DNA of 64,000 bases from an uncultured Candidatus Micrarchaeota archaeon (GCA_903828955.1 CAIKOA010000008.1:36813-100812); one strand, 5' to 3'. Positions 24,763-61,713 are shown, counted from the first letter of the stretch. Translations and numbers: made by a program. The notes: a model not told the origin generated them from the sequence alone.

Positions 24763-24880
24763 TCGCCAACGGCCATAGGGAGCTGGAAACACCCGATCCC
24801 ATCTCGAACTCGGAAGTTAAGCGGCTCTACGGCTTTATCTGTACTGCCCTAAGGGTGGGAAAATGGGCTGCTGTTGGCAC
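24763..24880 (+). rRNA. rrf: 5S rRNA, copy 2
   Basis: Identical to copy 1 over the mature region. The duplicated block extends from about 24711 to 24890 (about 190 bp, about 95% identity with 22911..23090), including the upstream promoter-like segment. Confidence 0.85.
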
Positions 24881-25418: not shown

Positions 25419-25503
25419 TGCAGGGGACGAGATTTGAACTCGCGAACGGACTTACCGACCAGGCCCTGAACCTGGCGCCTTTGGCCACTCGGCAACCCCT
25501 GCT
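25419..25503 (-). tRNA. tRNA-Leu (anticodon CAG), long variable arm
   Basis: Reverse complement: GCAGGGG-TT-GCCGAGTGGCCAAAGGC...CCAGG-TTCAGGG-CCTGG (anticodon CAG), variable arm, T-arm GCGAG-TTCAAAT-CTCGT, acceptor CCCCTGC + A. T-rich tract follows. Confidence 0.8.
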
Positions 25504-29851: not shown

Positions 29852-30979
29852 ATGTTTCCAAATATATACAAGGGGGATTACCGCCTTTTGCTGATTCCGC
29901 CCCTCTTGCTCATAGCAATATCACTATTGCTCGTCCCCACAATGAAATTCGGGGTTGATTTCCGAGGAGGCACCCTCATCACGCTCCAGCTTTCCGGAGA
30001 TATCGACAAGGCGGCACTCGAGCAGGAACTGACTTCGATGGGCCTTGACGCACAAGTAAATGTTTTTGAGGGAACTGTCAGCAGGACAGCGGAAATAGAG
30101 GTTTCCCAGACCGACGCGCTGATTGAAGCGGACAAATTGAAGGAGCAGTTCAATCCCCTCTTGGAAAAGGTCGCGGTTTTGGAAGCCCAGTCAAACGCAG
30201 ACCCCACAAAGTTGAAGGATTACAATACGCAGAGGGACCAGCTCAATTCGCTTGCAGACCGGATGTTCGAGCTCGGCGGAGTAACCTCGAAGGCGGAGTC
30301 CTTCACCAACCTCAACCAGCTGCGCACAAGCTTTTCGGACGCATACCTGAAGGTCTACGAAATCCACACCTCAAAAATAATGGATGCGATTAACCGGAGG
30401 GCCCACTACTCCAGCTATTCCATAGTCACCGTAAGCCCGGCCCTCAGCATGAGGTTCCTTGAGCAGGCAGGAAACGTAGTTTTATACTCGGCAATCCTGA
30501 GCGTAATCCTGGTATTCATCTTTTTCCGCCTTCCAGTTCCAAGCGCCGCGGTCCTAATCGGTGCGGCAAGCGACATAATAATCGCAATGGGCGGAATGTG
30601 CCTATTCGGAATCCCGCTCACGCTGCCCTCGTTTGCAGCCCTTCTAATGTTGATCGGCTTCTCCCTGGACACCGATATTCTGCTTACCACAAGGATCCTG
30701 AAAAGAAGGGGCGAGCCGAGAGAAAATGCATTCGATGCAATGAAGACCGGAATGACCATGAGCTTCTCGGCAATCGTTGCATTCAGCGTCCTGTTCATAA
30801 TCGCAATGCTTACCCATATCACGACTTATTATGAGATTTCCGCGGTTGCCCTTGCCGGCCTTGTCGGGGACATCTTTGCAACATGGGGGATAAACGCAGT
30901 AATTATTCTCTATTATAAGGAAAGGCTGGACCATAAGGAAAAAATTGAACATGGCAGGCCGGAGCACACGGGGGGATGA
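29852..30979 (+). CDS. secF: Protein-export membrane protein SecF
   Basis: N-terminal TM then KFGVDFRGGTLITL motif. Six C-terminal TM helices. Followed immediately by secD, the archaeal secFD order. Confidence 0.75.
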   Translation: MFPNIYKGDYRLLLIPPLLLIAISLLLVPTMKFGVDFRGGTLITLQLSGDIDKAALEQELTSMGLDAQVNVFEGTVSRTAEIEVSQTDALIEADKLKEQFNPLLEKVAVLEAQSNADPTKLKDYNTQRDQLNSLADRMFELGGVTSKAESFTNLNQLRTSFSDAYLKVYEIHTSKIMDAINRRAHYSSYSIVTVSPALSMRFLEQAGNVVLYSAILSVILVFIFFRLPVPSAAVLIGAASDIIIAMGGMCLFGIPLTLPSFAALLMLIGFSLDTDILLTTRILKRRGEPRENAFDAMKTGMTMSFSAIVAFSVLFIIAMLTHITTYYEISAVALAGLVGDIFATWGINAVIILYYKERLDHKEKIEHGRPEHTGG

Positions 30980-30982
30980 AAA

Positions 30983-32638
30983 ATGGTTGACCACAAACAC
31001 ACCATCGGAGCGCTTTTCATTCTCTTTGCAATAGGGATTTTTGCATTCCCTCTTTTCTCGGGGCTGGTCCTCATACTCTCCTTAGTAGTTTTCGGGGGGC
31101 TTTCCTCCATCTGGAAGGAGCGCGAGCTCAAGCTCCTTTCGCTGGCAGCGATAGTCCTTCTCGCCCTATGCAACATGGGCATAAACGGGATGAAATTCGG
31201 CATTGATTTCAGCGGAGGAACCAGGATTCCAATCATCCTTGAATCCCCGGCATCCCAGACAACAATGACCGAAATGGTCGACATCATAAAGAAGAGGGCA
31301 TCCGCATTCGGCCTTACCGAAGTAAAGGTAAAATCAATCGGGGACAGCCAGATAAACGTCGAAGTCCCAAGCGGAGACCCCGCACTCATAAGCACAGTAG
31401 AATCCCTCCTCTCCCACCAGGGAGTGTTCGAGGGTGTTGTTGATGGGAAGGTGGCGCTCTCTGGAGACGCTATTCTTCCGGGAACAATCCAGAACGTGCC
31501 AGCCACCTATCTGCATGGGGCGGACTGGGGGGTGCAGTTTTCCGTAACTAGAGACGGCGCAGAGCATTTTGCCTCAACAGTCAACGGCAAGGCAAACTAC
31601 CCGCTCTACATGTACCTGGACCGCCCGAAGGATGCGATAGTCATCGCTTCCTGGGATGAAGTGAGCAAGAACGTTAAAGTCAAGGACAGGCAGATGGTGC
31701 GTTCGGCAGCCAAGAAGGCGCTCACGGTGGAAAACAGCACAATCAACTTCTATATATTGGATGAGCTGAACGTGTCCTCGCTCCACGCCTCCACGAACAA
31801 GACCAAGGCAATAGTTTCCAAGGCAACGGAAGCCCAGATTGGAAGCCAGCTTCGTGCAGAGGGCTTCACCGTCCAGGTCGTGGAAGACACTGAGATATCC
31901 CCGGATGTTCAGCAGATTGAAACAGGAGAATACATAATAGAGGAATGGAAGGCGGTTGGGCTTCTTTCCTCTCCAGTCCTCAACCCGACCGTAACAGTGG
32001 GCACTCCAAACTACGGCTACATCATCAGCGGAGGGGCCCAAGGGGACACCCCTGCGGAAAAGCAGACGGACGCATACAACAAGGAAAAGGGAATCCAGTC
32101 CATCCTTAAGGGAGGGGCTCTTCCAATCCAGATTTCGATTGGAAGCAAAACCACGATCCCTGCGCCTCTCGGTTCGGAATTCCTCAAATTGAGCGTAATC
32201 GGGCTCTTCATCTCATTGATTGCAATCTCGCTCCTTGTTTCAGTCAGGTACAGGAAGATGAACATCCTCCTCCCGATCATCGCAATCAGCGTCTCTGAAA
32301 TGATAATCCTGCTTTCCATCCTGGGCTCGTTTACAATCGACCTTGCGGCGATGGCAGGAATAATTGCGGCAATCGGCGTAGGGGTTGATGCGCAAATCGT
32401 GATTACCGATGAACTCCTCAAGAAATCCGCAGGAACGCCGCAGGAGAGGCTTGAGAACGCATTCACCATCATAACCACGAACGTTGTGGTGGCGATCTTT
32501 GCGATGGTCCCGCTGCTCTTCTCAGGAATGGTCGAGATTATCGGGTTTGCAATATCCACAATCCTGGGCTCGCTCCTCGGGCTGCTGATCTCAAGGCCGT
32601 CCTACGCAGCGCTGGTGCAGAACATCGCAGAAGAATAG
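30983..32638 (+). CDS. secD: Protein-export membrane protein SecD
   Basis: KFGIDFSGGTRIPI motif, large extracytoplasmic domain, C-terminal RND-like TM bundle. 551 aa. Confidence 0.75.
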   Translation: MVDHKHTIGALFILFAIGIFAFPLFSGLVLILSLVVFGGLSSIWKERELKLLSLAAIVLLALCNMGINGMKFGIDFSGGTRIPIILESPASQTTMTEMVDIIKKRASAFGLTEVKVKSIGDSQINVEVPSGDPALISTVESLLSHQGVFEGVVDGKVALSGDAILPGTIQNVPATYLHGADWGVQFSVTRDGAEHFASTVNGKANYPLYMYLDRPKDAIVIASWDEVSKNVKVKDRQMVRSAAKKALTVENSTINFYILDELNVSSLHASTNKTKAIVSKATEAQIGSQLRAEGFTVQVVEDTEISPDVQQIETGEYIIEEWKAVGLLSSPVLNPTVTVGTPNYGYIISGGAQGDTPAEKQTDAYNKEKGIQSILKGGALPIQISIGSKTTIPAPLGSEFLKLSVIGLFISLIAISLLVSVRYRKMNILLPIIAISVSEMIILLSILGSFTIDLAAMAGIIAAIGVGVDAQIVITDELLKKSAGTPQERLENAFTIITTNVVVAIFAMVPLLFSGMVEIIGFAISTILGSLLGLLISRPSYAALVQNIAEE

Positions 32639-47325: not shown

Positions 47326-47440
47326 TATTTGATACTGTTTTTCTTTTAGGTGCGCTAGCCTTTTCTCCTTGAGCCGTTGCTCAAGGGAAGAAAGCGAAGC
47401 TTTCTCAGATTTTACAAAAAGAAAAGGATGGCAAATGGGG
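47326..47440. repeat. Interspersed A/T-hairpin repeat, copy F (long variant with internal insertion)
   Basis: gatactgtttttcttttaggtgcgctagcc ... tttacaaaaagaaaagg. Same ends as copy B, with about 45 extra bp inside. Confidence 0.6.
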
Positions 47441-47518
47441 GATCTGTGATTTGAACACAGATAACAAGCTCCCAAAGCTTGCAGCATACCAGGTTGGCTC
47501 AATCCCCCGTGAGAGAAT

Positions 47519-47911
47519 CTAAGTGAATTGTTTTCTCTCAAGGATATAAGTATCCCTAACTTTTTTAATACTAAAGCCTTTCTTCTCGTACAGATTCAAT
47601 GCAGGGCAGTTTGTCGGCCTCACCTTAAGCATAATGTCCATCTTTTCCTGGTTTGCATAGTCAATTGCCTTGTCCACGAGCATACTGCCTATCCCCCTCT
47701 CACGGTAATTCTCGACTACGCCAACCCCCTGCAGGAGAATCCGCCCTTTCTTTTTTATCAGGTGGATGAAGCCAACGTCCCTTCCCCCTGCCTTTGCAAC
47801 GAAGTAGAAATCGTTTGCAGAAAACCTGGGGAAAGCCTTTGGAAAAATCCGTCTAATCACTTTGAAAATGCGTTTTTCATCCGTGCTTTTCCTTACTTCT
47901 ATTTTCTTCAT
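47519..47911 (-). CDS. GNAT-family N-acetyltransferase
   Basis: Acetyl-CoA binding motif A: LQGVGVVENYRERGIGSMLV. Confidence 0.8.
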   Translation of the reverse strand: MKKIEVRKSTDEKRIFKVIRRIFPKAFPRFSANDFYFVAKAGGRDVGFIHLIKKKGRILLQGVGVVENYRERGIGSMLVDKAIDYANQEKMDIMLKVRPTNCPALNLYEKKGFSIKKVRDTYILERKQFT

Positions 47912-48531
47912 AACTGCCCCATTGTTATGTTCAATTGCCCTTCCCCAATTTCAAGCACAACGCTCCGCAGGTTTTTTCCCGCAGGGAGCTGCACAACCGT
48001 TGTTTCCCCGATTTTCTGCTTCCCTTCAACATCGTGGATGTGCCCGCAGATAAGCAAGAGGGGGCGCGCCTCCTCCATTATTTTGCGCACGGAATGGCTT
48101 CCCGCATGCAAACCGGCCTCCACCTCATCCAGAAGCCCATACGGAGGCACGTGTGTAAGCAATATGGTTTTCCCGTCTATAGGCAAATCCCTCATCTGCG
48201 CATAGATTTCTTCTTCGCGCATCTCCCCAGGGGTTCCAAAGGGGGTGGGGGGCGTAAAACCAAAACCAACTATGTTGAACCCTCCGGCAATTTCCATTCT
48301 CTGCTTGTGCAGGCAGCGCGGGTATTTATCCGGGGAATCCAATTCCTCGCTGTTTCCCGGAACCCAGTAAATATTGTCAGAAATTGAGAGCAAATCCTCC
48401 ATGAAGGAAACGCTTCTTCCTATGTCTCCTGCAATCAGCACATAGTCATATTTGGAAGCAACTGCCCGCAACCTGTCAAGAACCGCTTCTTCCCCATGGA
48501 TGTCAGCCAGAAGGAGTATCTTCATCTTCAT
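47908..48531 (-). CDS. Calcineurin-like metallophosphoesterase
   Basis: Motifs LLLADIHG, AGDIG, GNSE, GHIHD. Start set at MKMKILLL (48531) so that it does not overlap the Nop5-like gene. Confidence 0.8.
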   Translation of the reverse strand: MKMKILLLADIHGEEAVLDRLRAVASKYDYVLIAGDIGRSVSFMEDLLSISDNIYWVPGNSEELDSPDKYPRCLHKQRMEIAGGFNIVGFGFTPPTPFGTPGEMREEEIYAQMRDLPIDGKTILLTHVPPYGLLDEVEAGLHAGSHSVRKIMEEARPLLLICGHIHDVEGKQKIGETTVVQLPAGKNLRSVVLEIGEGQLNITMGQL

Positions 48532-50080
48532 GCCTGCCCCTCGCCCTCGCGGCATTTTCATTAATCTCTTTCAGGCGTTTTTCGAACTTGTCCTTAATAA
48601 GCGGCCCAATGAACCTTTTCGTGTAAACATCCGCTTTTGCAGCAAGCGAAATCTTTGTTGCAAGTGCGCGCGCAATCTTTCCCCGGACACCTTTAGGCGC
48701 AGTTGAAATTGATGCGTGCTGGAAAATTACCCCGTGTTTAGGGGGCGCGATGTTCCGGTTGCGCAGATGCTTGAAGAGCGCCTTCTCTGCGCCCATTACC
48801 TGGACTGTGCTCGCAGGCAGTACCGCAAGCTTCTTCATACCGCCGGCAACTGAAATCAGTTTTCCCGCGAGTTTAGCCCCGACAAGATAATGGAGGTTCG
48901 GGCATTCTTCGCGCGCAACGTCGTCCATGTGCTTCTCGTGCCTGTTCATGAGCGCAAAAATGGCTTCAATCTCTTGCGCCATTTTCTTCATATTCTCAAC
49001 ATCTTTTTCGTTGAAATTTCCGCCCACGCTGTTTTTCCCTGCCTCAGCGATCTGGCGCGCCTTCCCTTCGCCAACATATTTTGCAACCGCCTCGATTGGC
49101 ACGTCTTCTTTCGTAATCATATTTATGATGAGCGCGTAATTCCTCTTGTTCTCCACGTTCAATTCAGGGAAATAGAGCCCGTAAATCTCCTCGAGCCTTT
49201 CCCCTAGCTGGTTTGCAACGCGCTCTTCCTCTTCGATGCAATTAGAGAGCTGCGCTAGGTACATGTCTCTCCCGCGCAAAACCTCGGTGGTCTCTTCGCG
49301 CGCCCTCTTCATGAATTTTGAGCGGTCAAACCTTCCTTCGCTTCCTTCCCCCTCAGAAGGGCTTCTTTCGCGGAAGCTTCCGCCTTCCCTCCGTTCCTGG
49401 TTCCTGAAGCCGATGCTCCCCCCTCTGCGTTCCCCTCCGCTAAATGGGCGCCTCTCCCCTCCAAATGAGCGCCCGCCGCCCCGGTCCCCGCGGTATCCGC
49501 CGCCAGAAGGCCTCGGCCGATCACCATAATCTCTGCGTTCTCCACCTTCTCCCTGTCTTTCTCCGCTAAATGGGCGCCGTTCATTTCCTTCGCGCCTTCC
49601 TTCTCCACGGAAGCTGCCGCCAGAAGGCCGGTCACTATACCCTCTGCGTTCTCCGCTAAATGGGCGCTTCTCTCCGCCTTCCCTAGGGCGGCCTCCTTCT
49701 CTATCTCCTCCTGAAGGCCTGTCTCTATACCCACCACGATCTCCAGAGCGGTATCCTTCCCCCCTCCTTCCTTCGCCGCGGTATCCGCCGCCAGAAGGCC
49801 TATCGCTATACCCCCTATGTTCTCCGCCTTCGCGGGGGCGATGCCCGCCTTCCCCCAGTCTTTCTCCGCCTTCGCGCCTTCCTTCGCCGCGGTACCCGCC
49901 TTCACGTTTTCCGCCGCCCAAAGAACTCCGCTCGTTGCCTTCCCTTCTTTCTTCTCCGCGGTAGCTTTTCAAATCCCTTTTGCCCCCGCTGGAGCCTCCT
50001 CCAGTGAAGTTTCCCCTATTCCTGTCCCGTCCCCATTTTTTTTCTCCCATTTTAATCATGCCTCGTATGTGGTTTCCCAC
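48503..50080 (-). CDS. Nop5/Nop56/58-like protein (NOSIC + Nop domains) with about 275-aa N-terminal RGG/GAR repeat region
   Basis: C-terminal half has NOSIC (LGERLEEIYGLYFPEL) and Nop domain (GAKLAGKLISVAGGMKKLAVLPASTVQVMGAEKALF...). N-terminal half is tandem RGG/RPFSGER/YSDRPSGG repeats, visible as about 100-bp DNA repeats (ctccgctaaatgggcgc x3). Confidence 0.8.
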   Translation of the reverse strand: MGNHIRGMIKMGEKKWGRDRNRGNFTGGGSSGGKRDLKSYRGEERREGNERSSLGGGKREGGYRGEGRREGGERLGEGGHRPREGGEHRGYSDRPSGGGYRGEGRRGEGYRSGDRGGYRDRPSGGDREGGRPREGGEKRPFSGERRGYSDRPSGGSFRGEGRREGNERRPFSGERQGEGGERRDYGDRPRPSGGGYRGDRGGGRSFGGERRPFSGGERRGGSIGFRNQERREGGSFRERSPSEGEGSEGRFDRSKFMKRAREETTEVLRGRDMYLAQLSNCIEEEERVANQLGERLEEIYGLYFPELNVENKRNYALIINMITKEDVPIEAVAKYVGEGKARQIAEAGKNSVGGNFNEKDVENMKKMAQEIEAIFALMNRHEKHMDDVAREECPNLHYLVGAKLAGKLISVAGGMKKLAVLPASTVQVMGAEKALFKHLRNRNIAPPKHGVIFQHASISTAPKGVRGKIARALATKISLAAKADVYTKRFIGPLIKDKFEKRLKEINENAARARGRHEDEDTPSG

Positions 50081-51186
50081 ATCTTTTGCGCGAGCTTCCC
50101 TTCGTACATGAACTTCTCCACATCTGCCTTTTCCCGCCTTTCACGATGTGTTGCCAGGAAGGCATTCAGCTTGTCCACAAGAATTTGCTTGAGCTCGCCA
50201 GTGAGCATTTGCCCGCTCCTATATTCTCCTTCAATCTTTTTTAGCCTTTGCTCATCAGGCTCAAAGAGCATTTTCAGCCATTGGAAGGAGACATCCACGT
50301 CGGGATTTCCGCCCAATTTCCTGTGCTCCTCAACAGTTTCCCTCCCTCCGGAAAACGCATACTTCATTATTTTCTTGCGCACCGCCAACTCACCATCATT
50401 CAGCCAGATTGCAGTATCCGCCACGCTTGCGCTCATTTTCCCATGCACCCCCTGCAGCGGCGGAATAAACTTGGAATGTATCGCCGCAGTCTTGTGGAAT
50501 CCGAGCCCTTCGGCAATATCGCGCTGTATTCTCCAGTACGGGTCCTGGTCAATTGCCGCAGGAATCAGGCACCTCTTCTTCTCAAAGAAAGTCGGCACCA
50601 TCTGGTATGCGGGGTACTGGATCATCCCGATATTCGTCTCGTTCGTAAAACCGAAAACCGCCTTCGCAGTGGAAAAAGTGACCTTTTTCGCAGTCTGCAT
50701 CAAAAGCGGGTAAACATTGGAGGCGTACTCGCTGTTCTTGAAAACAAAAGTGCGGTCCGGGTCAAACCCGACCGCGGCAATGTCCCGGATATTCTCTTCA
50801 GCATACCCCTGCACTCCCTTCCAGGTGTATTCCCGCTTGTGCAGGAACTTCTCCTCATCCGGAAGCTGCACATAAAGATTTACCTTGAACCGGTCTTGCA
50901 GCCATTTAGTAAATACTAAGGGAATCAGGTGCCCGATGTGCATCGGCCCGCTCGGCGCCCGCCCGGTATACAGGAAAAATCCCTTTCCCTTCGCATAATC
51001 ATCCAGCACCAAATCCAAATCCCTGTGCGAAAAGAAGTAATCCCTCTCCAGCATCACGTTCTTCTCATGCGTTTCCTTCATGAGCCTCTCGCGGAGCGCA
51101 GGGCTTATCCTCTTCGTGCCGAACTCCTGAATTAATTTATCATAATCTATGGAACCCTCGACTTCCCAGGGCGTAACGATTGACAT
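50056..51186 (-). CDS. trpS: Tryptophanyl-tRNA synthetase (archaeal/eukaryotic type)
   Basis: Class I HIGH (PSGPMHIGHLIP) and KMSAS (GKMSAS) motifs. 376 aa. Confidence 0.9.
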   Translation of the reverse strand: MSIVTPWEVEGSIDYDKLIQEFGTKRISPALRERLMKETHEKNVMLERDYFFSHRDLDLVLDDYAKGKGFFLYTGRAPSGPMHIGHLIPLVFTKWLQDRFKVNLYVQLPDEEKFLHKREYTWKGVQGYAEENIRDIAAVGFDPDRTFVFKNSEYASNVYPLLMQTAKKVTFSTAKAVFGFTNETNIGMIQYPAYQMVPTFFEKKRCLIPAAIDQDPYWRIQRDIAEGLGFHKTAAIHSKFIPPLQGVHGKMSASVADTAIWLNDGELAVRKKIMKYAFSGGRETVEEHRKLGGNPDVDVSFQWLKMLFEPDEQRLKKIEGEYRSGQMLTGELKQILVDKLNAFLATHRERREKADVEKFMYEGKLAQKMWETTYEA

Positions 51187-51230: not shown

Positions 51231-52982
51231 TCATCTCTCCCAGCAACTGCTGTCTTCCGGGTGATACTCCTCATATCCCCTCGGGCAGCAGACCGCATAC
51301 TCATCAATCCAAACATCACCGGACTCCGGGCATACCCTGCAGGTGCCTTTGTTTTCCCCGACCTTTGCGCAATGCGGGTATTTGGAGTCACAACCGCATC
51401 TTTCGCAGTCATTGACCAGGCCCAGCTTCTCATCGCAGAACATTGGCTTTTCTACCGAGCACTTGCCATACTCGGTCCCGTCATTGCATTTTTTTGCAAG
51501 GGCATAGCTCACGGTTTCTTCAGGAGAGTAGCAATATAGGATTTTAGCAGGGTAACTCCACTCATCCACGGGCGCAGGTTCCGTTGGAACCGGGTCGCCC
51601 TTCTTGTAATAAAGGTAATCCGAAGGCGGCCACGTGCTTTCGTATATAGAATACAGCCCGTTGCTTTGCTTTACCCCGACCGTAAGATGGTCGTACTTTC
51701 CATCGCTGTCAGTATCAACTTCGCAGAGCTCGGTTCCGGAAATCCCTGCCCGAAGAAAGAGTGAGGCGAGCAGAACCGCGCTGTCGTCGCAGTCCCCCTG
51801 ATCCATCATTAAAGTGTAAGCAGGCGGCTGAACCCAGTCCACCTTCCAGTTCGGGTCGCTAACGTAATTTACTGAACCATACACAAATTTCAGGAGCCTT
51901 AAATCCATAGACTCCCCGGTTGGCTTGCCGTTCATTTCATCGACAATGTCAATCACCAGCGGGTCGTTCGGGTCCACCTGGAATGCATACTTGTAGTGGT
52001 AGCTCCCGATGTCATCATACAACGCATTGATCTCCTGGTTTACCCCCCGGTACTGGTTTGCATAATCATCAAACAGCGCACCCTGGGTGTCGTTCCTCCA
52101 TTCCCCAGGGGAATCATGTTTCAGCTGGTAAAGCAGGTATATCGATTGCTCCATGTGGGCAAGCGCGCCCTTCAGGTCCTGGAGGTAGGCAAGGTCGTCA
52201 TAAAGATACTTGTCGGTGTTTTTCTTTTTCTTGTATGCTTCCGCAAGGGCCTTTATCGCGTACATCTCTTCCTGCTTGCTTCCGAGCGTGAGGGACGCGG
52301 CCTTGACTTTACCGGCCTGGGATTGGTTTGCGGCCACAGTGTTCTGCAAAACGCCCAGCTCCCCGATCGGCTCTGCCATCAGGCCCGCGCAGCCTTCAGC
52401 ATCCGCGATCACCGCGTCGTAATTCTTCAATTTCCACTCATTAAGGGCTTTCTGCCTGCAGGCTTCGATTGTCACATTCCCCCCTATAACGCTCAGCTCG
52501 TTCTCGACTTCGTTTACGCAGGCGCCTTCAGCGCAAACTTCCCCGGACGCACAGCCGCAGTCCTTTGCGCAGGATGCGCAGCTTTCCCCGCCCTCGCAGA
52601 TTCCGTTTCCGCAGCAGGAAGGGATTATGGAATGGGCGCACTGCCCAATCGTGGTATTGCAGGAATCCCTTGTGCAGGAGTTCGCATCATCGCAGCTTTC
52701 AAGGCACTTCATCAGTGTGCACCTGTTTGCCTGGCATGCCATTCCGCTGCAGCAATCAGAAACAGTATCGCAGGTCTGGTTATCGGTTCTGCATGAAGGG
52801 GCGGAGGGCTTTTCGCAGAATCCCTGCGAACAGATCTCATCAGGCGCGCATTCAGTGGTTTTGTTGCAGGCAACTTTCGCCATGGCAGCGCACCCTGAAA
52901 ACGCCAAAAAAGCAAAAACCAAAATAGCGCAAAACGCGATCGAAGATTCTTTCCGCATGTCCTCCCCCGCATTATTCCGCAT
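51231..52982 (-). CDS. Secreted Cys-rich protein with central transglutaminase-like cysteine-protease core
   Basis: Signal peptide (IAFCAILVFAFLAFSGCAA). N- and C-terminal Cys-rich modules (CxxDxxC). Core GDCDDSAVLLASLFLRAGI...DHLTVGV (Cys/His of the TGase-like fold). Alternative start Met-9 (52958). Confidence 0.65.
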   Translation of the reverse strand: MRNNAGEDMRKESSIAFCAILVFAFLAFSGCAAMAKVACNKTTECAPDEICSQGFCEKPSAPSCRTDNQTCDTVSDCCSGMACQANRCTLMKCLESCDDANSCTRDSCNTTIGQCAHSIIPSCCGNGICEGGESCASCAKDCGCASGEVCAEGACVNEVENELSVIGGNVTIEACRQKALNEWKLKNYDAVIADAEGCAGLMAEPIGELGVLQNTVAANQSQAGKVKAASLTLGSKQEEMYAIKALAEAYKKKKNTDKYLYDDLAYLQDLKGALAHMEQSIYLLYQLKHDSPGEWRNDTQGALFDDYANQYRGVNQEINALYDDIGSYHYKYAFQVDPNDPLVIDIVDEMNGKPTGESMDLRLLKFVYGSVNYVSDPNWKVDWVQPPAYTLMMDQGDCDDSAVLLASLFLRAGISGTELCEVDTDSDGKYDHLTVGVKQSNGLYSIYESTWPPSDYLYYKKGDPVPTEPAPVDEWSYPAKILYCYSPEETVSYALAKKCNDGTEYGKCSVEKPMFCDEKLGLVNDCERCGCDSKYPHCAKVGENKGTCRVCPESGDVWIDEYAVCCPRGYEEYHPEDSSCWER

Positions 52983-53036: not shown

Positions 53037-54848
53037 CTAAACTATCACGAGTTTAACGCAGGCCCCGTTATTGCATCCATTAATGCCGCAGTTATAGGTC
53101 GTTGAAACAATGTTGCCTTCGGAGCAATAGTATTCCCGCACCTGGGTCTTGCTGTTGCAGGTATCCGTATTGGAGAGCTGGCCCTTTGTTGCGGTCCCCT
53201 TCGTATAGTAGTCTATCCCCCCGTCGCTGTCGGCGCATTTTGCCTCGATGCATTTGCCGCTTGAGCATATCTCGTCTTGAGCGCATCCGATATCCGTCTC
53301 CTTTGCAAGCAGCCCGCTGCAGTAACCCTCTGCAACAGTATAACTGTCCTTGCAGGAATCGGTGACTGCAACCACATACCCGTTGTCGGTTGATTCGGTT
53401 GCGGTCCCCTTCGCATATGCATCTTTCCCCCCGTCGCTGTCCACGCACTCCGCGGGCGAGCACACGTTCTTGTAGCAGAGCTCATTGTAGCTCATGCAGC
53501 TTATCGAAGTGCTATCTGCGCTCCCTCCGTTGCAATAATATTCGGTAAGGTGCGCGAAGTCTGTGCATAGGTCATCATAGCCGTGCGAACCCACGGTCAC
53601 CGTGCCTTCCTCATGCCTGTTGTTGCCGCCATCAGTGTCCGAGCAGGTGCTCGAAGCAGGCCTGCATTCCCCGGAAACGCAAACATCCCCGGAATCGCAG
53701 TTGAGCCTTGTGCTCTCAACATTGCCATCAGAGCAGTAGTATTCCGTAACCGTATCGCTGTCGTAGCAGTTGTCGTTCCAACTATCTCCGTCCTTTTCAA
53801 CTGTCCCGTATTCGTTCTTGTCCTTCCCTCCATCCGAATCCGTGCAGTAGTTGGAAGTGCATTCCCCGTTCACGCACATCTCATCGGATGCGCAGTCAAT
53901 CCTCTTGCTCGCTGCGCTCGCGCCGTCGCAGTAATATTCGTTAACCGTATCCCCATCATAGCAATAATCGTCATATTGCTGCCCCCCGGCATACACAGAC
54001 CCATACTGCTCTTCGTCTTGCCCAAGATCGGTATCCCTGCACGCGGTGGGTATGCAGCTGCCGTCTCCGCAGCTATAGGTGCCTCCGCAATCCACAGTCG
54101 TGTGGAAAACGTTCCCTTCCGAGCAATAATATTCCGTAACCGAGTTTACTCCTGAGCAAACATCTACATAGGTAATCCCGCTTGAGCCCCTTGTGGCCCC
54201 CTTCTCATAGATGTTGAAGCCGCCGTCGTTATCTGTGCACGCGGAAACAACGCATGCCCCGTCTTCGCATGCTTTCCCGCTTGCGCAGGCAATCACCTTG
54301 CTTAATATCTGGTTATTTGAGCAATAGTATTCCAATACATTCGAATAGCTGCTGCAGTTATCCGTGAAGCTGTCGCTCCCTTTTTTAGCGGTCCCCTTCA
54401 CTTCAGTATTCTGCCCGCCATCCGTATCAGAGCAGAGCACTTCCCCGCATTTTCCTCCTGAGCATTCCGTTCCCGCAGGGCAGGGCACGGTTTCGCTCGT
54501 TATCGCGTTGTTTAGGCAATAATACTCAAATACTGCGTTTGTTGTCGGGCTGCAGGTATCATTGAAGGATTCGCCGCCCTTAGTGGTGGTCCCGTATTCA
54601 AGAGCGTTCTTCCCGTTGTCCGAATCAACGCAATTTGGGGAAACAACGCTTCCGTTCTGGCCCGTTCCGCACGCGCCGGTGTGCGATATTACTGCGCCCG
54701 CCTCCTTCGCATAACATTCATTTGTATAAGTAACTCCGTCAGAGCCGCACACTTCGGCTTTCTCGCTGCTGCACTGGCCAGAAGTTTCCGTTGCGCACCC
54801 GAATAAAAGAAGCCCCAAAATAATCAGGAATATGGCGATTTTTTTCAT
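53037..54848 (-). CDS. Secreted protein made of about 11 tandem Cys-rich repeats (C-x-D-x-DGG...EYYC module, about 45 aa)
   Basis: Signal peptide MKKIAIFLIILGLLLFGCA. Repeated CSDTDGGQN..KG....G.D...D.C......V.EYYC units. Listed ORF starts 84 codons upstream with no signal peptide. ATG 54848 chosen. Confidence 0.75.
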   Translation of the reverse strand: MKKIAIFLIILGLLLFGCATETSGQCSSEKAEVCGSDGVTYTNECYAKEAGAVISHTGACGTGQNGSVVSPNCVDSDNGKNALEYGTTTKGGESFNDTCSPTTNAVFEYYCLNNAITSETVPCPAGTECSGGKCGEVLCSDTDGGQNTEVKGTAKKGSDSFTDNCSSYSNVLEYYCSNNQILSKVIACASGKACEDGACVVSACTDNDGGFNIYEKGATRGSSGITYVDVCSGVNSVTEYYCSEGNVFHTTVDCGGTYSCGDGSCIPTACRDTDLGQDEEQYGSVYAGGQQYDDYCYDGDTVNEYYCDGASAASKRIDCASDEMCVNGECTSNYCTDSDGGKDKNEYGTVEKDGDSWNDNCYDSDTVTEYYCSDGNVESTRLNCDSGDVCVSGECRPASSTCSDTDGGNNRHEEGTVTVGSHGYDDLCTDFAHLTEYYCNGGSADSTSISCMSYNELCYKNVCSPAECVDSDGGKDAYAKGTATESTDNGYVVAVTDSCKDSYTVAEGYCSGLLAKETDIGCAQDEICSSGKCIEAKCADSDGGIDYYTKGTATKGQLSNTDTCNSKTQVREYYCSEGNIVSTTYNCGINGCNNGACVKLVIV

Positions 54849-54901
54849 GTGCATGCATTTGCGCAGAAAGCTTAAAATCTGTTCTGCCCCCAACGTCAAG
54901 T

Positions 54902-56041
54902 ATGGAAAAGTGCCCCCTGCCCGCGTTATTATGCATCCTTCTTGCACTTTTTCTTGCTTTTGGAATGGGCTGCCCTTCCCCGCAGGAATCCCGGGCACCC
55001 GCTGGATCCACGGGGCACACCAAATCAACGCAACCCAACGAATCCACGGAACCCATCCAATCAACTGAATTCCAATGCTTCCTGGTAAATCCGCAGGCAA
55101 ATTCCCTGGGAATAGGAGGCACGGACATCGGGCTCCCCGTCGAGCGAAGCGATGGAACCACCTGGATTCTTTTTGGAGACGTTAAAGGCACAACCTCAGG
55201 CAAGGGAGGCGCAAGCGCGCTCGCAATCTCGCCAACCCCATTCAATTGCAGTTCGTTTAGCTGGAAAAGCGACGGGGAGAGATTTTACCAGCCGCTTCAT
55301 TCGGCAAGAAATTCCACCGATGCATCCACCGTTCCCGCTGGCGCAATCGAGCTGGACGGAAAATTCTACATCTACGCGATGCGCGTGACCCAGTGGGCTT
55401 TCAATTCCGGGCCAGGGGCTGCCACAGAGGGGCACGGGATGCTTTTCCGGCAGGAGAACTCCACATTCGTCCCGGTCGCCTCCTGGGCGCAGAACACGCA
55501 CACGAGCGCCGCGCCCGTCATCGGTAGGCTTGAGGACGGCACCGAAGCGGTTTTCATAGCTTTCACCAACAAATACAGGGACTCCCAAATCTATGGGGCG
55601 TACGTCCTTCCTTCGGAAATTGAGGGCCCCTCCAAATACCATTATTTTGCGGGAATGGAAAACGGGGAGCCGAGATGGGGCGACGAATCCTCTGCGGTCC
55701 CCATTAAAGGGCTATACGCCAACGGCACTGGGGAGATCTCCCTCGCCTACAACCCCGTCCTCAAAAAATACCTCCTGATGTTCAAGGATTACAAGGGCTC
55801 GAGGGATTCCTTCTACCTTTACTCCGCGGACAACCCGTGGGGCCCGTATTCCCTTGAGAAGGAATTCACTCCATGCGGAACTGCGGGGGATAAGCCCTCC
55901 TGGATGGAAGAGGGCTGGAGCGGCTGCTACGGAGGCTACATCTTCCCCAATTCCTTCGGAGCGGACGGAAAGGACATTTATTTCACGGTTTCCGTCTGGG
56001 TCCCCTATACCACAATCGTCTCAAAAGGAAGAATGGATTAG
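54902..56041 (+). CDS. Secreted lipoprotein, DUF4185-like (putative glycoside-hydrolase-like beta-propeller)
   Basis: Signal peptide with lipobox-like AFGMGC. C-terminal YGGYIFPNSF...YFTVSVWVPYTT resembles the DUF4185 C-terminus. Medium-low confidence in the family call. Confidence 0.55.
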   Translation: MEKCPLPALLCILLALFLAFGMGCPSPQESRAPAGSTGHTKSTQPNESTEPIQSTEFQCFLVNPQANSLGIGGTDIGLPVERSDGTTWILFGDVKGTTSGKGGASALAISPTPFNCSSFSWKSDGERFYQPLHSARNSTDASTVPAGAIELDGKFYIYAMRVTQWAFNSGPGAATEGHGMLFRQENSTFVPVASWAQNTHTSAAPVIGRLEDGTEAVFIAFTNKYRDSQIYGAYVLPSEIEGPSKYHYFAGMENGEPRWGDESSAVPIKGLYANGTGEISLAYNPVLKKYLLMFKDYKGSRDSFYLYSADNPWGPYSLEKEFTPCGTAGDKPSWMEEGWSGCYGGYIFPNSFGADGKDIYFTVSVWVPYTTIVSKGRMD

Positions 56042-56496
56042 TGATGGGGGGTTGCTTGGGATGAAACACTTTAGGGGGCGCTCCCCCTGAAGGGTTCTTC
56101 ACGGTTTCCGTCTGGGTTCCCTACACCACAATCGTCTCAAAAGGAACCATCTGAAGGAGCCCGCAAATCCATTCCGGATCGGCCTTTTTATGCTTTTCAC
56201 CAACTGTTTTTCAGAATACGAGAGAGGGAAAAACGCCCCCGGTGGAAAAGCCCAAAAATGCGGGTTTTTTCAGGAGCGGTGCAACAAATTTTCAGAAGTA
56301 TTCTCCGTCTGAGGGGCAAAACCTTTTTAAACACGTATATTCATATCTATCCTTTACCTTTTACGCTTCGAGCGCCCTCTTCGACGAATGGCGCGATGAA
56401 AAACGAATTTATTCATATAGGGTAGGCTATCTCTTCACGTTGGGGAGACAGCCGGCGTTTATAACGCCAAAAGAGTGTGAAGTAACTAGCTATGAA

Positions 56497-59396
56497 GTTT
56501 GGATATGTTGCATCCATGTAGTGGATGACTAGGCTAGTGCCAGCAAACTCACGTGGTAAGCTGCGATAAGCTTGGGTTAGGTGCACGCAACCATTGACCC
56601 CAAGATCTGAGTGAGTGCCCCTCGGGAAACTGAGGCGCACAGCTACCCCGGGAATTGAAACATCTAATTACCGGGTGGAAAAGAAACCAATTGGGATTCG
56701 GTTAGTAAGTGGACTGAAAGCCGAACAGGCCGTGCTGAATTCCCTGCAGCAATGCAGGGCAAATGTGGCGGGGAATATCCATTCTCTGAGCAGAAGTCCC
56801 CTGGAATGGGGTGCCATAGCGAGTGAAAGCCTCGTATGCGAAGGAGTGTGGAGTGAACCAAAACGAGTACCGTCCACCGGATAGCGGGCGGGAATATGGG
56901 GGTATCAACCTCCAAGCCTAAATATTGGGCATTAGACCGATAGCGAATGAGTAACGCGAGTGAACGTTGAAAAGGACCCCGGAAGGGGTGTTAAAAGAAC
57001 CTGAAACTACATGGAGACAGGAAGGTAAGGCATGAAAGGGTTATATGTTTGCCGAAGTGAATCCCAGAAATGGTTGGATCGAGGCAAAAGCACCAGTGTC
57101 TTATCATTCTTCTCGAAGCAAGAGCCAGGGAGTTTATCTGTGTGGCGAGACGAAAGTCGAAGCGAAAGCGAGCGTCCGCAGGTAACCAGGGACATCCTCT
57201 GAAAAGGGGACCAGTCACACAGATCAGACCCGAAGCCGGCGCGATCTACTCCTGACCAGGGTGAAGCCAGCCTGTCCGTTGGTGGAGGCCCGCAACCAGT
57301 GATGGTATATTCCTCTTGGGTGAGTCAGGTGTAGGGGTGATAGTCCAGTCGAGCTTGGCAATAGCGGGTTCCCCTCGAAATGTATCTCAGTACAGCGTCT
57401 TCCGAGGATGATAACGGGGTAGAGCACTGAATGGGAAGAGCGGCTCCGAAAGGTGTCACTTCCCTATCAAACTCCGAATTCGTTATCTCCGTAGACGAAG
57501 GCAGTCGGGTTCACGGGGTAAGCTTGTGAACCCTTACGGGAACGACCGTACGTGAGGTTAAGGGCCCTAAATTCTGGTTAAGTGTGAATACAAAGGAGCT
57601 TCTATCCTTAGACAGCTGGAAGGTAGGCTTAGAAGCAGCCATCCTTTAAACAACGCGTAATAGCGGACCAGTCGAGGATGCAGGTTCCGAAAATTGACGG
57701 GGCTAAACCAGATCCCGATACCCCACCCGAGCCAAAAGCTCGTGGAGTAGGGGGGCGAACGGGGCGGGTAGAAGCAAGGCGGTAACGTCTTGTGGACCGT
57801 TCTGTTATGAATATCCTGGTGTCAGTAGTAGCATATCCAAGTGAGAATCTTGGACGTCTGATAGGGCACGGTTTCCTCAGCCATGTTTGTCAGCTGAGGG
57901 TTAGGCGATCCTAAGTGGTGAGGTAACACCGGAGCCACGAAAGGGAAGCAGGTTAATATTCCTGCCCAACAGAGGTAGATGCGGCAACGCAAGTGCGGTT
58001 TTTGACCGCTTGGGATAAGCTGAGCCCGGGAGACCGGGTTTAACAGCGATACATCCATCGAGTCTTATCATGAGGAGAAGTGGATGAAACGCTGGAATAG
58101 GAGCAATCTTTGGCCGATTCCTGAGTGCCATGAAAAGAAAACCGTTCCGATCCTCTATTTCCGTACCTAGAACCAATACAGGTGCCCCTGGCTGAAAAGG
58201 CCCAGACGTGTTAAGACAACCCAGGCAAGGGAACTCGGCAAAATAGTCCCGTAACTTAGGAAGAAGGGATGCCTACCATCTTGTAGATGGTAGGTGGCAC
58301 TGACAAGGGGAGTGCGACTGTTTATCAAAAACACAGATCACCGCAAGGTCGTAAGGCTTAGTATGGTGGTCGACGCCTGCCCACTGCCAGTACCTGAACG
58401 CCCCATTCAAGGGGAAGAAGGGCTGGTAAAGAGCGGGGGTAACTCTGACCCTCTTAAGGTAGCGTAATACCTCGCCGCTTAATTGGCGGCTTGCATGAAC
58501 GGCGTAACGCCACTCCTACTGTCCCTGCCTGGGACTTAGTGAACTCATTGCCCGGTGAAGATACCGGGGACTTCCAGAGGGAAACGAAGACCCCGTGGAG
58601 CTTTACTATAGCCTGATGTTGCTGTATCGGTGTGGCTACCGAGCGTAGATGGGAGCCGTCGAGACCGTATCTCCGGATACGGTGGAGGCAAAATTGAAAC
58701 ACCATCTAGTTATGCTGATACTGCTTACCCGCAAGGGGACAGCATCAGGTGGATAGTTTGGCTGGGGCGGTACGCCCTCGATAGAAAAACAAGGGCGCCC
58801 AATGTTCTGCTCAGGCGGGTCAGAAATCCGCTGTAGAGGGTTAAAGACAAATGCAGGGCTGACTGTGTTCCTAAAAGCGTGGAACGCAGAGACGAAAGTC
58901 GGGCTTAACGAACCTTAGTATTCTATTGATGGGAATCTAAGCTGTCAGACAAGCTACCCCGGGGGTAACAGGCTCGTCGCGGGCGAGAGTACACATCGAC
59001 CTCGCGGCTTGGTACATCGCTGTCGGCTTGGGACATCCTGGTGGTGCAGGAGCCACCAAGGGTTGGGTTGTACATCCATTAAAGTCCCACATGAGCTGGG
59101 TTCAGTACGTCGCGAGACAGTACGGTAGTATCTTCTGGAAGTGTAGGTTCTTGAGGGGAAGGAACTTTGAGTACGAGAGGAACGGAGTCCCGGGGCCTCT
59201 GGTGTATCGGTTGTGTCAATGCATTGCCGAGCAGCTACGCCCTCCGTCGATAAGACCTGAAAGCATCTAAGGTCGAAGCGACACCCAAAACGAGGAACCA
59301 AAGACCGCCTATAGTAGATAGGTTTGATAGGAGCGGGGTGTAAGTCCTTAGCTAACGCGAGGGATTCAGCCTGCGCTTACTAAAGGTATAATCCCA
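56497..59396 (+). rRNA. rrl: 23S (large subunit) rRNA, about 2.9 kb, not linked to 16S or 5S
   Basis: 5' region GTGGATG...AAGCTGCGATAAGC...GGGAATTGAAACATCTAATTACC (domain I). Sarcin-ricin and peptidyl-transferase-like segments further in. Ends bracketed by a complementary processing stem (56483..56496 / 59397..59412). All ORFs called inside were rejected. Confidence 0.85.
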
Positions 59397-59502
59397 AATT
59401 TCATAGCTAGTTATCTTTTTCATTCTATTTTATTTTACTTCGTCTTAGCGTGAGCGCTGCCCAGTTCCTATCCCAAAATTAAGTTTAAGTTAAATCCGCG
59501 TT

Positions 59503-59805
59503 TTATTTCTTCTCCTTCTTTTCCGCGGGCTTCTCCGCCTTCTCTTTCCCAGCCCCCTTCTTGAACTCGGCTGCCCTGGCCGGGTCCTTCTTGGATAGAA
59601 GCGCAAACATCTGCTTTACGACTTCCCACTTTACTTCGCTAGCAGTTGCAGAGGATTTCAGCCGATCTAGGGCCCGCTCCACCACCCGGGAGGTTTCCCG
59701 CTCCGTAAGCTTTAGCCCGTAGTGCTGCTCGTAGTTTTGCATCGCGCTCTGCACAACCGGAGTTTCCGCCGCCCGCTCTTCCGGAGTAAGCATTTTCTCT
59801 GCCAT
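59503..59805 (-). CDS. Small N-domain protein (paralog of the N-terminus of ORF 17900..19465), Lys/Glu-rich tail
   Basis: MAEKMLTPEERAAETPVVQSAMQNYEQHYGLKLTERETSRVVERALDRL... is about 60% identical to residues 1-80 of 17900..19465. Confidence 0.65.
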   Translation of the reverse strand: MAEKMLTPEERAAETPVVQSAMQNYEQHYGLKLTERETSRVVERALDRLKSSATASEVKWEVVKQMFALLSKKDPARAAEFKKGAGKEKAEKPAEKKEKK

Positions 59806-60378: not shown

Positions 60379-61713
60379 TCAGGCGCTTATTTTTGAAAGC
60401 GCATCAAGCAGCTTTCTGTTCCTCGCGATATCATCTTCAAGGGCGGCCTTGTTCTGCGGCTCCCTGCGTATCTGAGTCTGCGTTGCAGTTATGTCATTCC
60501 GGATCTGGTCGCGAACCATGTTCAGGGCCTCCATTTTTTGTCTTTTATAAAGGCTCTCATACGAATCCGCGCCCAATGACTGCGCAACCGAATCCAGCCT
60601 CTTCTCTACCTCTTGCGTTGGGGACAGTACCGCAACCCCTGCCTCCTTCCTTTCAGCCTTTCTCGCTTTTTGTGCGCGCTCCTCTCCAGGCCCCTCGGTT
60701 TTAACGTTAATATCCCCGCCCGACATTCTCATCTGCCCTATTTCCGCAACCTCGCCTTCCTTAGCCGGCTTTATTTTAGGCTGTGCGGGTTCAGATTTTT
60801 TGGTTTCTGCAATCGCAACAGGAGGAGGCGCAGAAGGTTTCGTTCCCCCTGCGAGTACTTCCCGCGTTGTTTTGCCGCCCATCGCCCCGCCCATCTTCGC
60901 CATGGCAGCTTTTGCAAGCTGGCTGGCGAGTTCTTCATTAGAGATCGTTCTCCCTTTCTGCTCCCTTGCCGCGCTTCTTGCAGCAGCATCCGCCTTTCTT
61001 TGCTCTTCCCGCTGCTCCCTTTCCGCACGGGCTTCAGCTCTGGCTTGTGCCTCAGCTGCTTCCCCCTCGCGCTTCTTTTCTTCGCGTCTTGCAGCCCTCT
61101 CTTCCCGTGGCGTCATCTCTTTTTTGTGTTCCGGAATAATCAGGCTCTCGGAAGGGTGCTTCATCCTTTCGGGCTTTTCCGCCTCCGCAATTTTCGTTTC
61201 CTTCTTCTCCGGATAAACATCCTCAACAGCATAAAGCCCGGGCATCTTCTTCCTGCGTTCCTCATCCACTTTCTCATATGCAATCCGGAAAAGCGCCTCA
61301 TCCCTCGTCATTCCCCGCGAAGTAAGTTTTGCGATTTCCGCATCCGTTTTCCTTGCGCTTGCAATCGCAGCAGCCTGGTATTCCTTGAATTCCTTAGGCT
61401 GCACTTGCCTTAGGTATTCGCGCACCTCGGCAAAAGCATTAGGGGGCGGCTTTCCGGTCTTGTCCCATTTATCCAGAAGCTGCGTAACGGTATTCCTCAC
61501 TTCTTTAGGGGAAATATCAAATTGCCGCGCATAATACGCAAATGCCTTGGAAACATCCCCCGCAACTTCTTTTACGATCGCGCTAACTTCCTGCGAACGC
61601 AGATTCAGCCCATAAGTGGCCTGGTATTTGCTGATTGTGTCCATCACGACCTTCTCAATCATCGCTTCGGTGGGGGCCTTTCTCTCCACAGGGGGCATCT
61701 TGAGGTTGTCCAT
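60379..61713 (-). CDS. N-domain protein (distant paralog) with long charged/disordered middle and C-terminal coiled coil
   Basis: N-terminus MPPVERKAPTEAMIEKVVMDTISKYQATYGLNLRSQEVSAIV follows the same pattern as the N-domain of 59503 and 17900. EKKREGEAAEAQARAEARAEREQREEQRK charged region. Confidence 0.6.
   Translation of the reverse strand: MDNLKMPPVERKAPTEAMIEKVVMDTISKYQATYGLNLRSQEVSAIVKEVAGDVSKAFAYYARQFDISPKEVRNTVTQLLDKWDKTGKPPPNAFAEVREYLRQVQPKEFKEYQAAAIASARKTDAEIAKLTSRGMTRDEALFRIAYEKVDEERRKKMPGLYAVEDVYPEKKETKIAEAEKPERMKHPSESLIIPEHKKEMTPREERAARREEKKREGEAAEAQARAEARAEREQREEQRKADAAARSAAREQKGRTISNEELASQLAKAAMAKMGGAMGGKTTREVLAGGTKPSAPPPVAIAETKKSEPAQPKIKPAKEGEVAEIGQMRMSGGDINVKTEGPGEERAQKARKAERKEAGVAVLSPTQEVEKRLDSVAQSLGADSYESLYKRQKMEALNMVRDQIRNDITATQTQIRREPQNKAALEDDIARNRKLLDALSKISA

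Follow-up and report, generated by a model that had tools for sequence, protein, structure and literature searches.

The 64-kb stretch of DNA analyzed here, which we call the window (GCA_903828955.1, CAIKOA010000008.1:36813-100812), comes from an uncultured Candidatus Micrarchaeota archaeon and carries on its minus strand a gene for Nop5 (aNOP56). The product lacks the N-terminal domain (NTD) that binds fibrillarin in other archaea, and begins with a long disordered tail. The ribonucleoprotein (RNP) particle of Nop5, fibrillarin, L7Ae and a guide RNA is regarded as invariant across Archaea and Eukarya, while Arg/Gly-rich disordered tails are regarded as a eukaryotic hallmark of nucleolar RNPs. 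To our knowledge, all structural models place fibrillarin on the Nop5 NTD, and we know of no other docking surface. The box C/D literature likewise describes the complex as highly conserved. The gene and its parts, with residues counted over the 518-amino acid (aa) protein, are as follows.

48503..50059, minus strand: nop5 (aNOP56-like) coding sequence, 518 aa, without the N-terminal fibrillarin-binding domain (open reading frame (ORF), start comparison, Pfam, NCBIfam)
49331..50059, minus strand: disordered R/G/E-rich N-terminal extension, aa 1-243, made of degenerate modules (composition, motifs, DNA repeats, AlphaFold2)
48506..49330, minus strand: structured core, aa 244-518, with the coiled-coil domain and the C-terminal Nop domain (phmmer, AlphaFold2, Foldseek)
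48569..49216, minus strand: match to the Pfam Nop domain, PF01798 (Pfam search)

The sole Pfam domain in the protein is Nop, whose model spans the NOSIC and Nop region. It covers aa 289-504 of the 525-codon longest ORF with an E-value of 1.1e-48 and is matched at model positions 9-227 of 228, so that both the NOSIC and the Nop domain, which a first-pass annotation had read in the C-terminal half, are indeed there. Searched with phmmer against the PDB, the core aligns to residues 127-377 of P. furiosus Nop5 (E 4.6e-51, 36-39% identity) and to residues 124-385 of S. solfataricus Nop5, a span that corresponds to the coiled-coil and C-terminal Nop domains of these proteins. An AlphaFold2 model made from 84 homologues has pLDDT above 90 at aa 245-513 and is all helical there, with the first core helix starting at about aa 246 and two long helices at 264-296 and 351-385. 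Foldseek ranks first the S. solfataricus Nop5 fragment 3icx_A (residues 135-380; TM 0.94, rmsd 1.3 Å), and also retrieves 3nvi_A, an N-truncated Nop56/58 with L7Ae and box C/D RNA (TM 0.91), and Prp31 structures at TM 0.76-0.79. The core superposes almost completely on both truncated constructs (rmsd 1.3-1.8 Å), of which 3NVI shows that such a truncation is able to bind L7Ae and C/D RNA; those constructs are engineered fragments, whereas the window protein is a natural one, of a form found in every sampled member of its lineage and with a disordered tail added. The Nop-domain motifs are kept (GAEKALFKHL, PPKHG.IFQ and RGK.AR), and 21 columns, including positions of the G-A-E-K-x-L-F and P-K-x-G-x-x-F motifs, are invariant in an 84-sequence alignment that includes three canonical Thermoprotei Nop5 proteins. 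Both the coiled-coil domain and the Nop domain are complete and strongly conserved. From the Nop5 structures and the truncations 3NVI and 3ICX, we infer that the core would dimerize through its coiled coil and bind L7Ae on K-turn RNAs.

The NTD, by comparison, could not be found. Neither PF21572 nor PF08156 matched the window Nop5 in the Pfam search, the NCBIfam model of archaeal C/D-box aNOP56 (NF011121) is matched only at positions 133-391 of 417, and tblastn with the Thermofilum NTD gave no match in the window. For the comparison of loci we used a core-alignment scan with one genome per species (80 loci), plus loci fetched by exact protein look-up, and compared them by tblastn, a hidden Markov model (HMM) built from 46 canonical NTDs, and a neighbor-joining tree. 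The resulting sets hold 39 loci of Micrarchaeota type, including the window, and 47 canonical loci of other archaea (Bathyarchaeia, Thermococci, Thermoproteota, Methanobacteriota and others). All 47 canonical loci encode an N-terminal domain of about 100-130 aa, and at E <= 1e-3 the NTD HMM, with which control loci score 1e-15 to 1e-45, recognizes 46; only L072, whose N-terminal extension is 108 aa long and low in RG, escapes it. The same model has no match at E <= 10 in the 566 kb of Micrarchaeota-type loci including the window, and the NTD is missing in 39 of 39. The absence that the first-pass annotation had suspected, and for which it had proposed a domain search, is thus confirmed by Pfam, NCBIfam, tblastn and the NTD HMM.

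Close homologues of the window protein all come from Micrarchaeota (DPANN), the best of them labelled Bilamarchaeaceae, and 116 of the 120 best homologues are NTD-less. Among these 120 best matches there is no NTD-bearing Nop5 labelled Micrarchaeota, though canonical Thermoprotei Nop5 proteins are present. In the neighbor-joining tree, the NTD-less sequences form one clade on one side of the tree, with the window protein inside it. Since the domain is missing in all 39 loci and these lie on one side of the tree, its loss is not specific to the window gene and is consistent with a single ancestral event in Micrarchaeota. In the full-text literature we found no account of a Nop5 without the NTD, nor of RG-rich tails, for Micrarchaeota or DPANN, subscription-only literature being outside the scope of the search. 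We also considered gene fission, in which an NTD gene of its own would stand next to nop5 or fibrillarin. It is unsupported, as the NTD HMM found nothing in the 566 kb, which include the fibrillarin loci L060, L087 and L088, and the small ORFs that come after fibrillarin lack both conservation and Pfam matches; an NTD gene may still lie farther away.

Loss of the docking domain is accompanied by a different placement of the fibrillarin gene. In 46 of the 47 canonical loci, fibrillarin lies 300-600 nt downstream of nop5, and in the exception (L035) the contig ends just past nop5. In contrast, the two genes are unlinked in 37 of the 39 Micrarchaeota-type loci. The pair is kept in L060 (1418..2910) and L089 (3612..5060), where an NTD-less nop5 of 259-266 aa with no tail is followed by fibrillarin on the same strand. 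These two form a basal subclade of the NTD-less group in the neighbor-joining tree; being basal and still paired, they suggest that the NTD was lost before nop5 and fibrillarin became unlinked. The adjacent same-strand pair kept in both also suggests, by gene order, that NTD-less Nop5 and fibrillarin still cooperate.

Loss of fibrillarin from Micrarchaeota was considered and rejected. Searches that began with the L060 fibrillarin and continued with a profile of its Micrarchaeota counterparts returned many fibrillarins of 215-225 aa labelled Micrarchaeota, Micrarchaeia, Gugararchaeum, Norongarragalinales or Anstonellaceae, all with intact S-adenosylmethionine-binding motifs and none with a glycine/arginine-rich (GAR) extension. 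The gene stands alone in L087, L088 and L094. In L088 (2395..6663) and L094 (2415..6663), one genome labelled Anstonellaceae, it comes after SecD-SecF-DUF2085; the window has a SecD-SecF pair of its own (29852..32638), 45-50% identical to the pair in these two loci, after which comes a glycosyltransferase and not fibrillarin. Anstonellaceae is the sister family of Bilamarchaeaceae (PMC8561730). Fibrillarin is likely present in the genome of the window organism.

The tail that precedes the core is 30% glycine, 22% arginine, 13% glutamate, 9% serine, 5% proline, 4% aspartate and 4% tyrosine over aa 1-243, with 61 basic and 42 acidic residues (net charge +19) and only 16 aliphatic or aromatic hydrophobic ones. 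In the AlphaFold2 model, almost the whole of aa 1-240 has pLDDT below 50, and secondary structure is predicted from aa 246 onward only. An RGG box, as Thandapani and colleagues reportedly defined it in 2013, consists of clustered RGG triplets (di- or tri-RGG) with 0-4 residues between them. The tail holds only three RGG, at aa 108, 193 and 212 (spacings 85 and 19 aa), and 12 RG, with two RG pairs 3-5 aa apart; the dominant words are RGE, GER and REGG. The first-pass annotation had described a 275-aa RGG/GAR region. Its Arg/Gly-rich extension is real, and disordered, at a length of about 243 rather than 275 aa, while 'RGG-rich' or canonical GAR overstates a sequence with so few RGG and so many acidic residues. 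The tail is an R/G/E-rich disordered segment and not a classic RGG/GAR array.

Two peptide modules recur along it, Y.DRP(RP)SGG four times at intervals of 27-37 aa and RPFSG(G)ER three times at intervals of 30-42 aa. The DNA holds a dozen families of degenerate direct repeats, mostly with 65-97% identity to the reference copy, whose copies are spaced 21-555 bp apart (most 69-171 bp). The word CTCCGCTAAATGGGCGC, already noticed in the first pass, occurs three times, at 49435, 49561 and 49651. Tandem Repeats Finder, run on 48000..50500 with a score of at least 30, reported no array because the repeats are too degenerate and too irregular; the tandem repeats of about 33 aa or 100 bp proposed earlier exist as degenerate modules with irregular spacing, not as a clean array. 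As read from these repeats, the tail was built by recent in-frame duplications. Its arginine and glycine codon choice is like that of other genes in the window.

Tails of this kind are hypervariable in length among the orthologues compared. An RG-rich N-terminal tail of at least 25 aa is found in 49 of the 120 best homologues (at least 60 aa in 15 of these), and an RG-rich C-terminal tail of at least 25 aa, reaching up to 234 aa, in another position of the protein, in 21 of the 120. The 243 aa of the window protein make the longest N-terminal tail in this set. Tails of like composition, with arginine and glycine accompanied by acidic and aromatic residues, occur in many lineages at one end or the other. 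This distribution does not agree with the earlier suggestion that the tail replaces the NTD, given that the domain is missing in 39 of 39 loci while the tail spans 0-243 aa, may be C-terminal, or does not exist. A metagenome scan for near-identical relatives, intended to gauge polymorphism in repeat length, returned only 55%-identical orthologues and one bacterial RluB-like low-complexity match. On the high-GC bacterial contig L093 (1..1305), a protein resembling pseudouridine synthases ends in a very long R/G/P/D-rich C-terminal tail, whose match to the Nop5 tail is due to low complexity alone; the translation suggests an RluB-type enzyme with an RsmD-like gene and mutL after it. It is an unrelated case of an RNA-modification enzyme with an Arg-rich disordered tail.

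Within the window, a scan for RG-rich segments found them in two of 50 ORFs, nop5 and a PIN-ATPase-KH protein (21248..22849, minus strand; NCBIfam PRK13764 E 5e-196, PINA E 2e-124), both of them nucleic-acid-handling proteins. The second segment is placed just before the C-terminal part of its protein.

21422..21496, minus strand: TRGSGRGRRGGGGARDRGEGGGGGR, second RG-rich segment, 25 aa (aa 452-476), in the PINA-like PIN-ATPase-KH protein

As only two of 50 ORFs carry such a segment, the feature is targeted and not a genome-wide compositional bias. The same count makes a weak case for the earlier idea that the organism uses RGG boxes broadly on RNA-processing proteins; the RG-rich insert in the PIN-PhoH-KH protein had been seen correctly, in a gene that is not a neighbor of nop5 but lies 26 kb away.

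The tail is most nearly paralleled by the GAR/RGG domains found on fibrillarin, Gar1 and nucleolin in eukaryotes, and by the KKE/D tails that Nop56 and Nop58 carry; like them, it is a charged, disordered, repeat-built appendage at the end of a core (sno)RNP protein. Glycine and arginine make up 52% of the window tail, with tyrosine and phenylalanine interspersed. Unlike GAR/RGG domains, it lacks di- or tri-RGG clusters, is 17% acidic with its RGE, GER and REGG words, sits on Nop5 and not on fibrillarin, and is not conserved in length. Archaeal fibrillarin has no GAR domain (PMC7608942). In yeast, both maturation and modification of rRNA draw support from disordered KKE/D regions in Nop56/Nop58 and Cbf5 (PMC11528048).

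It seems fairly probable to us that the window gene encodes a Micrarchaeota form of Nop5 that serves as a box C/D small RNP scaffold without an NTD and with an RNA-binding disordered tail, in a phylum that has retained fibrillarin. The core would dimerize via its coiled coil and bind C/D RNA through L7Ae-bound K-turns. The tail, by analogy, would be a non-specific appendage that binds and anneals RNA, self-associates and raises the local concentration of substrate RNA, functionally comparable with the KKE/D tails of Nop56/Nop58 and with the GAR domains that eukaryotic fibrillarin and Gar1 carry, and of independent origin. Because the phylum keeps fibrillarin while the Nop5 NTD is gone, fibrillarin would reach the RNP by a non-canonical contact or act undocked from Nop5.

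Several points weigh against this scaffold reading. The only known fibrillarin-docking surface is gone, and the label 'C/D methylation scaffold' may not fit. The score against NF011121 is 263.8 bits, below the curated equivalog cutoff of 452. Neither fibrillarin nor L7Ae was found in the 64-kb window. The window also yielded no C/D small RNA (sRNA) candidate, either with a strict C/D'/C'/D pattern or with a C...D search for a guide of at least 10 nt complementary to the in-window 23S rRNA, a result that is uninformative since shuffled controls also gave zero. With three RGG triplets and 17% acidic residues, the RNA affinity of the tail may be below that of true GAR domains. There is no tail at either end in 32 of the 120 best homologues, and the close relative L008 has one of only 12 aa, so the tail is dispensable in many relatives, as neutral repeat expansion would also give. 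Two further searches of the window can be added here: Rfam at gathering thresholds found rRNA and tRNA only, and no arginine methyltransferase candidate was seen among the ORFs scanned with Pfam or read by eye. By sequence, the window protein is an orthologue of archaeal Nop5, and since it lacks the NTD and falls below the equivalog cutoff, it is a variant rather than a standard member. It resembles archaeal Nop5 (aNOP56; NF011121; 3NMU, 2NNW, 3PLA, 3ID5) in its coiled coil, C-terminal Nop domain and conserved motifs; it differs in the missing N-terminal fibrillarin-binding (RuvC-like) domain of about 120 aa, in a gene that is not beside fibrillarin, in the 243-aa disordered R/G/E-rich extension and in the score just given.

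The genes around nop5 bear on what else the protein might work with. In the window they form a string on the minus strand (47436..51186) of synthetase, nop5, phosphoesterase, GNAT and tRNA-Pro, with overlapping gene junctions.

50056..51186, minus strand: class-I Trp/Tyr-tRNA synthetase, upstream of nop5 (Pfam tRNA-synt_1b)
47908..48531, minus strand: metallophosphoesterase, calcineurin-like, weakly YfcE/MPPED2-like, directly downstream of nop5 (Pfam Metallophos, Metallophos_2, Metallophos_3)
47519..47911, minus strand: small GNAT acetyltransferase, RimI/Ard1-like, overlapping the metallophosphoesterase gene by 4 nt (Pfam Acetyltransf_1)
47436..47508, minus strand: tRNA-Pro(TGG), just downstream of the gene string

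The metallophosphoesterase matches the NCBIfam YfcE subfamily below cutoff and MPPED2 in the PDB at E 2.5e-5, and the GNAT protein matches NCBIfam rimI below cutoff and RimI and archaeal Ard1 in the PDB at E 1e-6 to 1e-7. A homologue of the metallophosphoesterase lies downstream of nop5 in 34 of the 39 Micrarchaeota-type loci versus none of the 47 canonical ones, in the slot where other archaea place fibrillarin, and a GNAT gene comes after it in about two-thirds of those Micrarchaeota-type loci. No canonical locus has a GNAT gene directly downstream of nop5; one GNAT match lies 4 kb upstream in L038. The string of NTD-less nop5, metallophosphoesterase and GNAT is also found in L001, L003, L004 and L007-L032, and the order of nop5 and phosphoesterase, with tight or overlapping junctions, holds across Nop5 core identities to the window protein of 38-83%. 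The synthetase precedes this string within the window's own clade, its adjacency to nop5 recurring in L001, L006, L007, L008, L009 and L011. By gene order, the phosphoesterase and the GNAT protein may be new partners of Nop5. On the 1.2-Mb contig L090 (3203..5666), fibrillarin is preceded at a distance of 1.1 kb by a same-strand homologue of the window phosphoesterase (31% identity, E 3e-30), and a PD40-like, probably secreted protein is encoded in between. Upstream of the synthetase in the window are two large Cys-rich, probably secreted repeat proteins (51231..52982 and 53037..55100, both on the minus strand) with weak matches to Kazal-like and Dicty_CTDC-like Pfam domains, a pair that is kept in L006 (1..3210).

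Such an arrangement could be read as a rewired RNP, in which NTD-less Nop5 no longer serves fibrillarin. The particle would either be a methyltransferase-free K-turn RNP, acting as an RNA chaperone or organizer in the manner of Prp31 or U3, or recruit other enzymes such as the phosphoesterase and the GNAT protein, with fibrillarin acting independently. We regard this as doubtful. In its favor, the NTD, the one interface known for fibrillarin, is absent from all Micrarchaeota-type loci sampled, nop5 and fibrillarin have mostly become unlinked, and the phosphoesterase follows nop5 so persistently and has a homologue near fibrillarin in L090. However, L060 and L089 keep nop5 and fibrillarin adjacent on one strand, and gene order alone is no proof of physical interaction. 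The GNAT protein has the look of an unspecialized RimI/Ard1 protein N-acetyltransferase, and no specific assignment could be made for the phosphoesterase.

For the tail, the alternative to an RNA-binding appendage is that it is translated and neutral, a low-complexity sequence prone to slippage, whose expansion a disordered terminus tolerates and which serves no selected role. Lengths of 12-243 aa among orthologues whose cores are 74-83% identical, internal DNA repeats of up to 97% identity that imply recent duplication, and the 32 of 120 best homologues with no tail all speak for this reading. What makes it unlikely in our judgment is that the same compositional type recurs in many lineages, N-terminal in some and C-terminal in others, and that RG-rich segments in the window are confined to two nucleic-acid-handling proteins. 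Composition that is kept while sequence and length turn over is the usual signature of a selected disordered region.

An Arg/Gly-rich region could also be an annotation artefact, with the true start internal and near the Nop core and the G/A-rich region an untranslated spacer, a frameshift or a misassembly. The open frame by itself is weak evidence, because the purine-rich, T-poor coding strand leaves other frames open over the tail as well, for example a 198-aa ORF at 49309..49905 on the minus strand; since it proves little, the call that the tail is translated rests on comparative evidence. The longest reading of the gene starts at a GTG at 50080 (48503..50080, minus strand, 525 codons). The likeliest start is not this one but the ATG at 50059, which gives the 518-aa protein and overlaps the upstream TGA (50056-50058) as ATGA. 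The identical ATGA overlap is found in L006, the closest relative (83% core identity), and the two proteins share an N-terminus (MIRMEKKGW versus MIKMGEKKW); the overlap of upstream stop and nop5 start is consistent with translational coupling. Measured from the stop of the synthetase gene, the earliest in-frame start codon of the seven syntenic loci is at -4 to +139 nt. Their tails, of 12, 31, 36, 99, 164, 204 and 243 aa, are in frame every time; five of the seven begin with MGR(K/Q), and all seven join the core through a conserved stretch (for example ...FGAGFDRSKF(I/M)KKARE) which has diverged further in L006 and L011.

Judged from these comparisons, translation of the tail is almost certain. 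From 50050 to the core the frame contains no ATG, and the only internal Met (FMKRARE), a residue of the conserved core helix, is replaced by Ile in L007, L008 and L009. The internal start that the first-pass annotation had named as the result that would undo its reading is thus not what we find, with the start lying beside the upstream gene. An artefact is very improbable: the start overlaps or abuts the upstream gene in seven of seven syntenic loci, the extensions come from independent assemblies, all in frame and with conserved ends, and an untranslated spacer of about 730 nt would be atypical in a densely packed window.

Prp31 of the U4/U6 snRNP offers a precedent for the architecture of the window protein, being a Nop-domain protein with a coiled coil and without the NTD (PMC11213020); it binds the L7Ae-family protein 15.5K on K-turn RNA without recruiting a methyltransferase. 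It is distant in sequence from the window protein (E 1.7e-14), which has no Prp31_C domain and an archaeal host without a spliceosome, and the NTD losses in Prp31 and in Micrarchaeota Nop5 are probably independent. That the gene encodes a Prp31-like or other divergent Nop paralogue, coexisting with a canonical Nop5 elsewhere in the genome, was raised in the first pass and fits the shared architecture and the TM of 0.76-0.79, but is hardly credible given that archaeal Nop5 is matched at E 4e-51 versus 2e-14 for Prp31, that the NTD-less sequences all fall in one Micrarchaeota clade with the window protein inside it, and that the 120 best matches, which reach canonical Thermoprotei Nop5, include no NTD-bearing Nop5 labelled Micrarchaeota. 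Even taken together, an artefact and a paralogue have only a slim chance of being right.

Other features of the window lie apart from nop5. Two 5S rRNA genes, at 22966..23080 and 24765..24879 on the plus strand, are 100% identical over 135 bp and 1.8 kb apart, and flank a 505-aa ORF on the opposite strand (23088..24605) whose function is unassigned. The 23S rRNA gene is complete (56494..59402, plus strand). As there is no 16S rRNA in the 64-kb window and the 5S copies are about 32-34 kb from the 23S gene, the rRNA genes appear unlinked. Three ORFs, at 17900..19465 (plus strand), 59503..59805 (minus strand) and 60379..61713 (minus strand), have in common the N-terminal module MAEKMLTPEE.AA..PV.QSAMQ.Y.QHYG.KLTE.ETSRV and look like a paralogous family, of which the copy at 59503 is short (100 aa). 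ARAGORN calls a tRNA-Leu(CAG) at 25419..25502 on the minus strand, where Rfam has no tRNA match at its gathering threshold.

A lineage that keeps fibrillarin together with an NTD-less Nop5 raises the question of how, or whether, the methyltransferase is positioned, and offers a natural equivalent of the truncation mutants that structural studies have used. Arg/Gly-rich disordered tails arose repeatedly on this archaeal RNP scaffold, which bears on the evolution of tail-assisted RNA processing and on a possible role in condensation. The phosphoesterase and acetyltransferase that stand in fibrillarin's place beside nop5 are concrete candidates for partners. At its furthest, the evidence may describe a box C/D machine rewired in Micrarchaeota, where after ancestral loss of the docking domain Nop5 would have become a Prp31-like organizer of K-turn RNPs, with no tethered methyltransferase or with the phosphoesterase and GNAT protein as new partners, independently evolved GAR-like tails would capture RNA, and fibrillarin would act by another route. 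We think this unlikely; if true, it would provide an archaeal precedent for NTD-less Nop proteins such as Prp31 and for R/G-rich disordered regions on snoRNP-type proteins, both of which are usually viewed as eukaryotic innovations.

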